A stretch of 64,000 nt of DNA from an uncultured Trueperaceae bacterium (GTDB taxonomy: Bacteria; Deinococcota; Deinococci; Deinococcales; Trueperaceae): positions 384,001 to 448,000 of the forward strand of contig CAWCXJ010000013.1 of assembly GCA_963799485.1 (NCBI GenBank). Direction: 5' to 3'. Below, piece by piece: positions 20,363 through 61,470 of the stretch. Position 1 is the stretch's first letter; every line of letters starts with the position of its first letter. The notes below the pieces were generated by a model. That model saw only the letters and a program-made list of their open reading frames with translations. It did no database searches and was not told the origin of the DNA. The position numbers and the translations under genes were made by a program.

Positions 20363-21223
20363 TAGCAATTACCGGAGTAATTGAGCTAAAGATAAAGTGA
20401 TGAAGGCTTATTGATTTGGATTTACGCGAACGTATCGTTGAGGCAAAAGCTGGCGGTCTGTCTATCAGACAGACCGCCAAACGCTTTAAGGTAAGTTGTG
20501 CAAGTGTCAAACGTTTTGTCAGGCTGGAGCGGGAAGCAGGAAGCTTAAAAGCAAAGCGGCGACCTGGTAAACAACCGCTCCTGAACGATGAAGCACTGAG
20601 TGTTTTAGAGAAGCAGGTCCGGGAACGAAACGATCTAAGCTTGGCTGAGCATTGCCGGGAACTTGAACAGCGCAGCGGTTTACGAGTAAGCGTCACAACG
20701 CTGCAGCGCAGCTTGGGGCGGCTAAGCATCACGAGAAAAAAAGACGAAACACCCGCGTGAGCGCGATGGACAAGCAAGGCGAACTAGGCTCACGAGGGCC
20801 GGCCGAAGGTTGCCCGTTCTAGATGGCTGGTCAGAGGTGATTCAGTCCATACCCAGACCTTTGGCACTTACCGCGAGCATATCCTGTACCCTACGCTGTT
20901 TTCAGGGCAGATCGTAATCCTCGGTCCGAGCGTAGCGAGAACACAACGTAACAACTACAGCATCCATACCGACAGCAGGATTCGTGAACTCATCGAAGCA
21001 AAAGGCTGCACACTGCTCTTTTTGCCAACTTAACCCACCTGACCTGACGCCTATCGAAAACGCCTTTTCTAAGATCAAGGCGCTGCTTAGGCGAGCGAAA
21101 GCTACAACTCGAGAGGTGCTATCCCAGGCTGTTAGAGCTGTCTGTGATGCTATTTCTCTTCAAGACATTCTCAGTTGGTTCGGTAACTGTGGCTACTTGG
21201 GTCATTATCTGTGAAAACTGCTA
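20363..21223 (+). mobile_element. Degenerate IS630-family element (internal deletion, two micro-insertions)
   Basis: TA-flanked ends TAGCAATT / TAGCAGTT; MKAY..DLRERIV N-terminus with a stop; A7 slippery site; GQIVIL-DN and PDLTPIENAFSKIKALLR motifs. Confidence 0.85.
20781..20822. repeat. 42-bp micro-element, copy A
   Basis: 38/42 identical to the outer parts of 59318-59410. Confidence 0.8.
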
Positions 21224-21509: not shown

Positions 21510-22000
21510 TAATCTTGCCCCGTTTTCCCGGAAAGGTAGTTAAGCAGCTTGCATGAAGTGTACCCTTTCAAAATCGTGGGGGGATGAAAAGCCCAGAGCG
21601 GAGTGCCTGCGCTTGGCGTTGTAAAAGCCCTCGAGGTAGCTGAAGATGCCGGTTCTAGCCTGCTGACGGGTTTCATAATTTGCGGCAACCTCATCAGTGT
21701 TAAGCGTAGCGAGAACGACTCGACAACTGCATTCTCATAACAACTGCCCTTATCCGACATGCTTTGCTGGAAGCCGTTCACGTTTAATTCGGCTCTAAAG
21801 GCGCGGCTGGCGTACTGAGTGCCCTGATCCGAATGGTGTGAAAGTGCAGTGGTAGCAGTCCGCTGCCGGGTTGCCAGCGACAGCGCTGAAAGCGTTAGGT
21901 CATCTGTCAACCTCTCTGAGAACGCCCAGCCTACAACCCTGCGGCTAAATAGGTCGAGCGTCACGGCGAGGTAAAGCCAGCCCTCAGCTGTCGAGATATA
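21510..22000 (-). pseudogene. IS3-family transposase C-terminal fragment with right end
   Basis: EGWLYLAVTLDLFSRRVVGW, HHSDQGTQY, ENAVVESF; frameshifted tail YLEGFYNAKRRHSALG; end resembles an IS3 right IR. Confidence 0.85.
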
Positions 22001-58806: not shown

Positions 58807-59000
58807 TCCTACAGTTGCAGATGGCGCTTTTGCCGCCTGAAACGAGCGTGTCTCGCCTGGACCCGATGCCGCCGCCACCACGACCGAGCCAGAACAAACT
58901 GCGAGTCCAGCCTGCCATGCCAGAACAGCAGACACGGCAAATGCCACACCTCCGGCACACTCAGCGCGATCAAGCCATCGTTTGGGATGCTCCTTTTTAG
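58807..59000 (-). pseudogene. IS701-family transposase C-terminal fragment
   Basis: LIALSVPEV...FVLARSWWRRH...RHLQL* resembles IS701 C-termini. Confidence 0.6.
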
Positions 59001-59654
59001 CCTCACGACTACAGGTGCAGCAAGATGAAGTGTTGACCAAACAGATTCAAACCATCTACCAGCAGAACCGACGAGTCTACGGAGTGCCCCGTGTCCACGC
59101 TGAATTACACGCTCAAGAGATACGGTGTAGCCGCAAACGCGTCGCCCGGCTCATGCGCTCGGCAGAGCTTAAAGGCAAAGTCAAAGGAGACAAAAAACCC
59201 AAACGGTCTCCGCCATCTACGTCTGCTACCAATCTTCTGAGAACTCACGAAGTCGTGACGAAACCCGACCAGGTTTGGGTTTCTGACATCACCTATTTGC
59301 GTACGGGTGAGGGCTGGGAACTAGGCTCACCAGGTGCGCGGAGGCACTCCCTGTCACGAGTGACGAGTGCTGCGCAGCAACGGTCGCCGGCCGCAGGGTG
59401 CCCGTTCGAGCTTTATCTGGCAGTCGTTATCGACGCTTACTCTCGCAAGGTTATTGGCTGGGCCATACGGGAGCATCTTACCGCTACGTTGACGCTGGCT
59501 GCTTTCGAGGTGGCCTATCGACACAGACGTCCCCGACCGGGCTTGATCTGTCACTCGGACCGTGGGTCTCAGTACACCTGTGCAGTTTTCCAGCACTGCC
59601 TGAAAACATCTCGGGCACGGTTCAGCACGGCCCGTAGCTGTTACGAAAACGCTC
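59000..59654 (+). pseudogene. IS3-family OrfB fragment with an in-frame 93-bp insertion
   Basis: YGVPRVHAEL, RKRVARLMR, WVSDITY, GEGW[insert]LYLAVVIDAYSRKVIGW, HSDRGSQY, CYENA. Confidence 0.88.
59318..59410. repeat. 42-bp micro-element copy B carrying a nested 51-bp hairpin insert
   Basis: Outer 17+25 bp match 20781-20822; inner 59335-59385 includes TGCTGCGCAGCA and GTCACGAGTGAC. Confidence 0.8.
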
Positions 59655-59656
59655 TA

Positions 59657-59920
59657 GGGTCTGTCTGACTAAACTTCATAGCCATAGCATGATGGAAGCG
59701 ACAAGCACACCAGCGCGGTAGTTTCTACCCCGCTTGTCATGGCGGGTAGCCACAGCACGAAAGTCTTTAAGCCGGTTGATGCAGCGTTCAACAACGTTGC
59801 GACCCCGTTGGGGGTTGGTGGCTAAATGTGGCTTTAGCGTTTGCCACTGCTGCTCTTTCAGGTCTGTCCGTGCCATACCTTTACCCTAAACCGTCTTCAT
59901 CCCTTCTGTCAGACAGACCC
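59657..59920 (-). mobile_element. Internally deleted IS5-family (IS427-like) mini-element
   Basis: IR GGGTCTGTCTGAC at both ends in CTAG context; 66-aa ORF fuses MARTDL..QW to RNVVERCINRLK.FRAVATR.DK. Confidence 0.85.
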
Positions 59921-59923
59921 TAG

Positions 59924-61470
59924 ATGAGATGTGGTCTTGTGCAAGACAGGCGTCAGTTTATGCACGTTCTCGCACGCTTCGGAGCGCGCTAGGTTAAAGT
60001 GTGCGCCCAGCACGTCGAACGTCGGATAGTTCTTGAAGGAGTAGTAGGTTGTCAACAAAGGTTTACAGGATAAAGCCGAGCCAACTTGATGCGGGCATCA
60101 GCGGTGGTGAACTGCCAGTTCACTTTGGTGCCCAGCAAGTTGCGTTCGAATGTCCAAGCACCTACTTCTTGCGTAAGCCGGGTTAAGTCGGCGCTGCGCC
60201 TGTCTAGACACTGCTTGCTGAGCGCCGCAAATTCGATTTCAACGGCGTTTAGCCAACTGCCATGCTCAGGCGTGTGGTGCAACTCGAGCTTGGCGGCAAG
60301 CCGATGTGCCTCCTTGGGTTCAAAGGCTTCATAGAGTGACGCCTTTGAATGGGTGTTGAGCTGATCGAGGACGACGATAATCCGCTCTGCTTCAGGAAAG
60401 AACTCGTCTACAAGCCGCTTCATGCAGGCGGCGAACGCCAGCTTCGTTCGCCTTTGCGTCACCATCATCTCGCGCCAGCCCAATAGCGGTGCAAACAGCC
60501 CAAATACGTTGGCCGTGCCGTTTCTGACATACTCGAAATCGAAACGGGCAAGCTGTCCAGGTTTAGCGGGGACAACCTCACGTTTGTCCCCAATGAGGTA
60601 ACACGGACGTTCGTCAACGCAGACCACCGGAAACTTCGGGTCAAGCGGTCGCTCGTATACATCCAAGACATCTTCCATGTGAGCGACAAAACGGGCACTC
60701 GCCTCCGGAGGGATGCACCACTGTTCCTTTAAGTGAGGGGACAACTCGTTTTTTTGAGCGTCTGACGCACCGCTTCATGTGAGATAGTGCTGACCACCTC
60801 GAGTTCCACAAGCTTATCTGCGAGCATTCGCAACGTCCATCCTGCGTGTCCGGCGGGCGCTTCACTACAGGCGAGCGCAATCAGTCTAGCCTCGCCACGT
60901 CCGTCAAGTTTACGGGGCTTGAACCTCACCGCTTGAGCGTAGCCAAGGGCTGCTTGTAGTCCCTGTTCGGCAAACAGCCGTTTCGTGCGCCACACGGTTG
61001 TGCTGGCTATGCCCAGCACCTTGGCAATCTCTGTATCGCTAAGGTGTTCACCGTTGGTGTCGGCAAGTAGCAAGATACGCGCCCGGTCAATCTTCCGAAC
61101 ACGGGCGCTGCCTTTACGTGTCAACGTTTGAAGCTGTTCTCGTTCTTCTTCGCTCAGGCTGATCTCTCGTCTTCGCATTCTCTAGCTTACTCTGTAAACC
61201 TTTGTTGACAGCCTAATAGTAGTAAAGCAAAAATAGTAGCTTCGCCTCAGCACTCGGCAGCTTCCCTTTCCGTCCTGCGCCTGGTCTTCGCTGTTTGCCT
61301 CCCGGCTCGTGCACTTGCGCCTTCTCGGTTTCGTACGTCTCAGCAAACCCCTCCGTTAGCGCAGTGAACTTCTCCTGTGTAAGTCCTGTCAGCGCGCTGA
61401 GCCGTTCATCTCGTATCTTCGCCAGCATCTTCTCAGTCTGGCAGCTTCGCAGACTATTGGGGAACGACTC
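59924..61470 (-). pseudogene. IS5-family ISL2-group transposase fragment split by IS630
   Basis: LTGLT..F..L, RRPGAGRKGKL..EAKLLFLLYY continues across the IS630 as KNYPTFDVLGAHFNL. Confidence 0.7.
60044..61216 (-). mobile_element. IS630-family element, apparently intact (orfA 60729-61178, orfB ending 60052, -1 frameshift at A7)
   Basis: Long IRs TAGG(T/C)TGTCAACAAAGGTTTACAG with TA flanks; DERP, YVRNGTANVF, DQLNTH, TPEHGSWLNAVEIE. Confidence 0.92.

Follow-up and report, generated by a model that had tools for sequence, protein, structure and literature searches.

An ultra-small, nestable DNA element family with a covarying three-way-junction fold in transposase genes of Trueperaceae

Results

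Nested micro-insertions in the window

The window, a stretch of 64,000 nucleotides, belongs to the genome of an uncultured Trueperaceae bacterium (G000; 3.66 Mb, 15 contigs). It contains a fragment of an IS3-family OrfB gene (58982–59668, plus strand), truncated downstream, in which a 93-bp insertion (59318–59410, plus strand) adds 31 codons in frame between the HTH_21 and rve domains and splits the motif GEGW|LYLA, as originally predicted. Intact IS3 homologues align without a gap: eleven of them run across the empty site with zero bases gained or lost, and in a public contig from a relative precisely these 93 bases are missing. The insertion consists of three nested units of 42, 24 and 27 bp, E1 carrying E2 carrying E3. 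The 5′ part of E1 (59318–59334, plus strand) comprises one strand of a terminal stem, a TAG linker and hairpin 1 up to the passenger site, and its 3′ part (59386–59410, plus strand) comprises the remainder of hairpin 1, a single-C linker, hairpin 2, the other strand of the terminal stem and a 3-nt tail. This tail is GAG, not TAG, and for this reason the 31 codons contain no stop. E2 (59335–59385, plus strand) is a 24-bp shell (59335–59352 plus 59380–59385) split by the 27-bp E3 (59353–59379, plus strand), which holds two mini-hairpins. The inner 51 bp had been taken for a single passenger; the coordinates given for it are exact, but it is made of the 24- and 27-bp units. The E1 part of this insertion is referred to below as copy B. 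By eye, a short element with inverted ends at about 59658–59924 breaks the 3′ end of the IS3 fragment, and more IS pieces come after it.

Copy A (20781–20822, plus strand) is a 42-bp long-loop variant of E1 without a passenger, located in the remnant of an IS630 transposase gene (20400–21214, plus strand) that has an internal deletion and frameshifts. It is identical to the outer 17 + 25 bp of 59318–59410 at 38 of 42 positions, in exact agreement with the coordinates and sequences of the original prediction. Alignment of its flanks confirmed that it sits at a deletion junction: the left flank ends right after the KKT motif, and the right flank restarts just before the second catalytic Asp. Since copy A marks an IS630 deletion, its flanks are not a native target and were omitted from the target counts below. 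The same remnant contains E4 (20924–20950, plus strand), a 27-bp micro-insert unrelated to E1.

The search for other genomic copies, by BLAST and profile, brought the number of E1 copies in G000, where the element measures 37–47 bp, to 11, one of them 5′-truncated. The full-length copies gave E-values of 1e-9 to 1e-18 in the genome search, and none of 364 genomes had more than one match to a reversed control pattern, so the matches are not due to chance. All 11 copies lie within transposase genes, of IS1 (three copies, at one nucleotide), IS3 (three copies, at two sites), IS5 (one) and IS630 (four, two of which represent one duplicated site), and intact transposase homologues lack the sequence. 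With IS making up ~0.44 of the harmless landing space, the probability that ten events all fall in IS is p ~3e-4, a crude, rough estimate for which the automatic test recognised 8 of the 11 sites as IS while the other three were assigned by separate evidence. Two other searches of G000 were set aside: an exact 18-mer repeat census, too strict for diverged copies, returned only the passenger and one E1 cluster, and a descriptor scan was uninformative (3 real copies among 7 matches, versus 2 matches in the reversed genome). At two places (G000:C6:606 and C11:1803) an IS5-family element is inserted in the CTAG at the 5′ end of E1.

The fold of E1

E1 is laid out as four bases, TAG, a hairpin, C, a second hairpin, four bases complementary to the initial ones and a short 3′ tail, with CTAG at the foot of hairpin 1. 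It is a three-way junction whose 4-bp terminal stem brings both ends together. In 27 E1 variants, 96.9% of 324 cells are paired, and the stem covariation is 0.134, compared to 0.044 after shuffling (0 of 500 shuffles reach the observed value) and at most 0.022 with slid partners; these values count sequences, not events, and are inflated by related sequences. Double Watson–Crick changes are present in each of the three stems among 52 variants, with the caveat that template switching can produce compensatory change and that palindromes can self-correct. In this set of 52 the terminal stem takes the forms GAAC/GTTC, GTAC/GTAC and GCAC/GTGC (a fourth type, GTTC/GAAC, was seen in locus L345), the perfectly paired types number three for hairpin 1 and six for hairpin 2, and the TAG linker is constant in 51, being TTG once. 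The GAAC and GTTC ends noted at the outset are thus present, not as a transposase-binding inverted repeat but as a covarying stem followed by a short unpaired tail.

Compared to shuffled sequences, the folding energy is not significant for the 42-mer (z 0.41), the 93-mer (z −0.82) or the 51-mer, and that of a plain 37-mer E1 has z −2.3. Because the folding energy is unremarkable by itself, the structure rests on covariation; of the folding and covariation proposed originally, the covariation was borne out in all three stems and the energy was not significant. Mismatched pairs comprise 7 G–T and 11 A–C in the 52 variants, and the lack of an excess of G–T over A–C fits folded DNA better than RNA. 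An Rfam search returned one chance match (E 6.4) and none above chance.

Nesting and length

Each stage of the nesting was seen separately: the empty IS3, plain E1, E1 with the 24-base unit, and E1 with the 24- and 27-base units. Plain E1 occurs at the IS3 base of copy B in run X5, E1 with the 24-base shell and without the 27-mer occurs in run X3, and genome G001 has E1 with the 24-base passenger alone, at the same E1 position as in copy B. The complete 93-bp composite is also present at a second IS3 site on contig C1 and slightly past the end of the window. E3 is known solely inside E2, in four copies in G000, and was found in 0 of 363 other Deinococcota genomes (≤3 mismatches). The 51-bp E2 + E3 unit occurs also in another double-hairpin host, at G000:C12:29312. 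In a sister genus, E1 and a 23–24-base element are nested either way round; E1 takes other micro-elements into its arms and enters theirs. The other double-hairpin host (L017, G000:C12:29296–29378) ends in CTAG and adjoins an IS3 end, and no second copy of this host was found.

Without a passenger E1 is 33–47 bp long, most commonly 37 bp. That the sizes are multiples of three, as the 42, 51 and 93 bp in the window had suggested, does not hold for E1: the 37-bp form occupies 41 of 87 sites, and most copies of it break the reading frame.

Insertion behaviour and target preference

About 45 of 89 E1 sites, counted by eye, match an empty homologue without base gain or loss; three have one extra base, two have one fewer, and the remainder have no usable homologue. 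E1 thus inserts bluntly and without target duplication, as predicted, with occasionally one base more or less. CTAG was rejected as a target duplication, as the empty alleles contain neither CTAG nor the E1 ends. The ends are fixed across IS1, IS3, IS4/5, IS6, IS21, IS256, IS630, IS1595 and ISAs1-type hosts, and one identical 37-mer lies in nine distinct flank pairs. With respect to the host gene, 19 copies are sense and 25 antisense (n = 44), by which a preference for insertion into the sense (mRNA) strand was rejected.

E1 reuses exact hot-spot nucleotides. At one IS3 site with four filled and four empty copies, monophyly of the filled copies was rejected (p-AU 1.9e-5), as it was at a second IS3 site with two filled and five empty copies (p-AU 1.9e-7). 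As the filled IS3 copies do not form a single clade, the same base must have been struck repeatedly or else precisely emptied. For the IS1 site the tree did not reject a single origin (p-AU 0.135).

For the analysis of targets, 8 of the 89 sites were dropped (IS-replaced flank, deletion, tandem neighbour, short flank, or the unpublished genome G334), and homologous targets were collapsed into 59 classes on the basis of similarity, whereby two unrelated pairs were also merged. C is present at −4 in 35 of the 59 classes and G or T at +2 in 48. The tail TAT always follows a pyrimidine (13 of 13, compared to 14 of 45 for tails ending in G; p 6e-6). Guide-like matching was not apparent: neither loop 1 nor the terminal 4-mer correlated with the target. 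Hairpins are mildly enriched at Truepera targets (p 0.011), are absent from at least 13 of 32 sites, and show no fixed register there.

Meiothermus targets are often clean hairpins of the form GC-NNN|GC, which was also found empty. E1 enters at the 3′ edge of the three-base loop, the net insert being 36 bases with one shared G, and tandem head-to-tail arrays of non-identical copies occur. We infer that the GC-starting Meiothermus form rebuilds its own target, which fits such stacking; no head-to-tail arrays of the GAAC form were seen. At locus L345 (genome G210), a tail-less E1 variant whose terminal stem is inverted occupies a three-base hairpin loop, at what is by eye the apparent 3′ end of a tnpB gene. 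Two further variants (L349 and L352, genome G196) lie in a composite repeat, apparently also within a tnpB gene as judged by eye.

Distribution and genomic settings

The exact E1 pattern was found in 12 of 364 Deinococcota genomes, with reversed controls near zero, and at 19 metagenome loci. In GTDB all 14 matches are in Deinococcota, and all of these belong to Trueperaceae or Thermaceae. A covariance model detected E1 in 12 of 128 Trueperaceae (a count that includes the unpublished G334, on which no other result depends), in 5 of 68 Thermaceae and in none of 125 genomes from a third family in the order; two genomes of the genus Meiothermus gave 39 and 48 matches. Two matches in viral contigs, representing one sequence with stems that are not E1-like, were dropped. 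The copies, empty alleles, nesting and distribution together agree with the original prediction of an ultra-small, nestable, non-coding mobile family in this lineage.

Of 84 scanned E1 sites, 44 adjoin an ORF with a transposase Pfam domain, representing many IS families; several further sites are IS by homology, and about a dozen are within another micro-element. A few are in or beside host genes, one being in frame in a penicillin-binding protein gene. We read the pile-up in Truepera transposase genes as reflecting hot spots, transport by IS and room to land without harm, not a function. The site in the penicillin-binding protein gene (L030, genome G199) consists of nested tandem copies of E1 that are read through in frame in the transpeptidase domain. 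In genome G002, E1 and other short repeats form long nests (L025 and L022) in tRNA synthetase ORFs, in frame inside that of valyl-tRNA synthetase and at the start of that of tyrosyl-tRNA synthetase.

E1 can hitch-hike on the IS it lands in, and duplicated E1 sites occur in several genomes. In genome G005, an IS630 (L146:572–1683) is present in 20 copies, of which 17 are full-length and three are broken by later insertions. All 20 copies are virtually identical and carry E1 antisense in the catalytic domain, with a net gain of 38 bases and stop codons; an uninterrupted copy of this IS630 was not found in G005, a genome that is 99% complete. Removal of the 37 bases of E1 leaves the IS630 out of frame; from the sequence, a full-length protein, longer by 13 residues, would result from a second frameshift, of −1. 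Another IS630, intact and related (53% identity, the first eight terminal bases in common), could act in trans.

Discussion

Mobility and mechanism of E1

E1 is very probably a real mobile family, a non-autonomous micro-element of some Trueperaceae and Thermaceae. We infer that it is mobilised in trans, and think it probable that it moves as folded single-stranded DNA via a trans-acting enzyme that cuts and rejoins. Given movement of this kind, a divergent or unrecognised HUH/Y1-type enzyme has somewhat less than an even chance of being responsible, host topoisomerase I is a more tentative candidate, and any other enzyme would be rather doubtful. The terminal stem would bring the two ends together, and a phosphotyrosine-type enzyme acting in trans would release the element, probably as a tiny circle. 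The enzyme would then join the released E1 to a single-stranded target that it has cut three bases downstream of a C, in many cases where a small hairpin loop has its edge. Head-to-tail arrays could arise by repeated entry if the first bases of the element rebuild the target, as in the GC-starting Meiothermus form. Searches for an RT, RAYT, IS200/605, IS110, IS91 or integron enzyme found none that tracks E1, and none of the enzymes suggested in the original prediction (RAYT, RT, IS110) could be tied to it. Tyrosine integrases are present everywhere and are thus uninformative. Searches with half-elements in 14 E1-bearing genomes revealed no gene between the E1 halves at 60 followed-up loci, which instead held nested or tandem micro-elements and chance matches.

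The target signature suggests host topoisomerase I as a candidate enzyme, although we consider it rather unlikely to be the one that moves E1. In the parts available of two publications (PMC3467081, PMC7587558), bacterial topoisomerase I is described as selecting a cytosine four bases upstream of the cut, and in that of the former the E. coli enzyme cuts only at C(−4). Like E1, type IA topoisomerase I has sites with C four bases 5′ of the junction and, in the same partial sources (PMC3467081, PMC7587558), uses single-stranded or hairpin substrates and breaks and rejoins DNA without base loss. As the fold would align the two ends next to each other, both lying three bases beyond a C, breakage and rejoining by a topoisomerase could amount to excision and insertion. 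One type IA topoisomerase is encoded in each of five genomes, and that of G000 keeps the pocket motif in an alignment to the mycobacterial enzyme. The topoisomerase I ORF of genome G273 (L337, G273:C10:19839–21164) encodes 656 aa, compared to 938–995 aa in the four others, and is either a split gene or an assembly error.

C(−4) is present at both junctions on one strand for copy B, E2 and E4, and at one junction for E3. A C stands at −4 of E1's own end at 86 of 87 sites, a proportion that is partly imposed by the search patterns. Among 19 other micro-inserts, found de novo by aligning IS copies and derived from fewer families, nine have C(−4) at both junctions on one strand, compared to the 23–24% expected (p ~0.02); the test is weak, as E4 was known beforehand and the result is not significant when all 32 cells are counted. 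However, the C(−4) rule of the topoisomerase is nearly strict, and 24 of the 59 E1 target classes break it, including the IS1 site with its three copies; a much-used E1 site in another micro-element also lacks C(−4). The net insert of 36 nt with one shared G in Meiothermus means that one exchange cannot satisfy C(−4) in donor and target alike, and the tail-less copy at L345 does not fit C(−4) in a single exchange either. The target preferences at +2, +3 and +6 are not accounted for by topoisomerase I. Since this enzyme is universal and E1 is patchy, the enzyme alone does not explain the distribution. Our searches found no literature linking topoisomerase I to the movement of mobile elements.

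It is unlikely that a RAYT (TnpA-REP) or the TnpA of IS200/IS605 moves E1 as an atypical REP/REPIN, with CTAG as the guide tetranucleotide. The CTAG at the foot of hairpin 1, the REP-like size, the absence of target duplication, the dozens of intergenic copies and arrays in Meiothermus, and the occurrence of Y1 genes in four of five Truepera genomes would all be consistent with this, as would the action of HUH enzymes on folded single strands, as described in the accessible part of PMC8266576. However, the Y1 genes examined belong to ordinary IS200/IS605 elements with ends unrelated to E1 and T-rich left flanks, and both RAYT-like genes carry GTAG palindromes of their own, not E1. A search with PF01797 in ten genomes found no cognate RAYT gene flanked by E1, and genomes G273 and G199 carry E1 without a Y1 match. 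The E1 junctions, in the 59 target classes, are not at the C|T reported for TnpA-REP, and a fixed left target of 4–5 nt is absent.

Copying through RNA, as a structured RNA used by a reverse transcriptase or as a tiny intron, is very unlikely; as a corollary, E1 may then leave the transposase mRNA and so keep the interrupted IS active. This would agree with the tRNA-like flush 5′ end and short 3′ overhang, with the occasional one-base slips at junctions, and with the G005 IS630, of which only interrupted copies occur. In that IS630, however, E1 is antisense, its excision would leave the frame broken, and the related intact IS630 could supply activity in trans. No RT was found in G000, G002, G005 or G275, and one was present in the fifth genome; the unbiased orientation, the lack of a wobble-pair bias and the lack of a convincing Rfam match are also contrary to an RNA intermediate.

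It is very doubtful that E1 derives from a larger element of the IS5, IS91, IS110, IS607 or integron type, as its remnant, its MITE or the footprint of its excision, with a full form that escaped detection. CTAG is repeated close to both ends in a manner like the target duplications of IS5, the GAAC/GTTC of E1 resembles IS91 target words, and IS110 is present in 10 of the 14 E1-bearing genomes. Against this, the empty alleles carry neither CTAG nor the ends, no gene lies between the E1 ends at the 60 loci, four of the 14 genomes have no IS110 match, and the IS110 of G000 has ends unrelated to E1 and a different target. Searches of the 14 genomes for a Y2 transposase and for the integron integrase IntI gave 0 matches each, in tests whose positive controls were silent.

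That the inserts arise at hairpins as side products of replication slippage, template switching or the repair of breaks, and spread only through the IS carrying them, is hardly credible: hitch-hiking is real, as in the 20-copy IS630 and the duplicated sites of several genomes, and many targets are hairpins, but the identical 37-mer in nine distinct flank pairs, the ends fixed across many IS families, the dispensability of microhomology or duplication and the filled IS copies that are not one clade already largely refute it.

Comparison with known small repeats

Literature searches found no published description of the E1 family. Elhai et al. (2008) reportedly described the small dispersed repeats SDR1–8 of Nostocaceae. 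Cyanobacterial SDRs are very small (about 21–27 nt), non-coding, dispersed, precisely inserted and nested, with a structure kept by compensatory changes, and we know of no mobilising enzyme assigned to them. By these features E1 is SDR-like, being very small, non-coding, dispersed, precisely inserted and nested, with a structure likewise kept by compensatory changes; the 24–27 bp of E2, E3 and E4 fall within the SDR size range and the 33–47 bp of E1 outside it. E1 differs in belonging to another phylum, in the three-way junction that closes both its ends and in its strong bias to transposase genes in Truepera. SDR5 inserts inside HIP1 (GCGATCGC), according to PMC4390886, whereas E1 enters not HIP1 but either three-base hairpin loops or sites with a loosely kept C(−4)/K(+2). 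The SDR repeats are also treated in a citing paper, as the available portion of PMC2884548 indicates.

With REPs, REPINs and BIMEs, as portrayed in the accessible parts of the sources cited, E1 shares its size, hairpins, tandem clusters, a four-base tag at the hairpin foot, the lack of a gene of its own and a probable single-strand chemistry (PMC3733652, PMC3116915, PMC8266576, PMC6006769). However, E1 has CTAG in place of the GTAG or CGTC tag at the palindrome foot, lacks a cognate RAYT and C|T ends, has exact ends with empty alleles, and in Truepera lies within genes and in few copies. The REP traits of being abundant, extragenic and clustered apply to it in two Meiothermus genomes, not in Truepera. 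The minus strand of E2 has GTAG ahead of a short hairpin. The portion available of one REP survey (PMC3733652) contains 0 matches for four genus names of this phylum.

E1 resembles peel-and-paste IS200/IS605 elements (IS608, ISDra2) in the absence of target duplication, in ends set by folded single strands and in a 3′ end that resembles the left half of the target, and differs from them in lacking a fixed 4–5-nt target, in being unrelated to the ends of resident IS200/605 copies and in a pairing that stops 2–3 bases before the 3′ junction. Like MITEs (RUP, NEMIS/Correia, Nezha), E1 is non-autonomous and can ride in or on IS; unlike them, it has only a 4-bp offset stem instead of terminal inverted repeats of 15–30 bp, makes no target duplication, and is half the minimal size stated in PMC3733652. 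The shared core and resident-guide target of an IS110 bridge-RNA cargo are lacking in comparison with the IS110 of G000, and a group II intron or retroelement is at variance with the presence of an RT in one of five genomes and an Rfam search with nothing above chance. E1 fails the tested defining features of a REP–RAYT system, a MITE, an IS200/605 derivative, an IS110 cargo and a retroelement.

DNA units of less than 50 bp are too short for known transposon ends. E1 makes the mobility of such units testable, with ends mapped to the base, a covarying fold, four nesting states and a target signature that names a candidate enzyme, and it represents a parasite of parasites, disabling or riding IS of many families. 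Should a host topoisomerase or an unknown single-strand enzyme move it, this would constitute a new mobility route and possibly a minimal, scar-free insertion tool. It is conceivable, if rather improbable, that E1, its passengers and similar 20–40-bp inserts are transposase-free mobile DNA parasitising the essential host topoisomerase I; this would explain the lack of a dedicated mover for SDR-like elements and would make E1 a precise insertion system of 37 bases.

Other micro-inserts

At least eight further micro-insert families of 20–51 bp were observed in transposase genes in the IS regions of G000 and the fetched loci. Multiples of three account for 14 of 19 micro-inserts other than E1, and several families are 27 bp long. 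In two diverged IS630 elements E4 interrupts the codon for the second catalytic Asp (G|AC, G|AT), at 20924–20950 of the window and at G000:C2:70100–70126, and a 14-base piece of it recurs at about 21703–21716 of the window. A 36-bp family occurs in both IS630 and IS1, and also bears a 15-bp passenger (L169).
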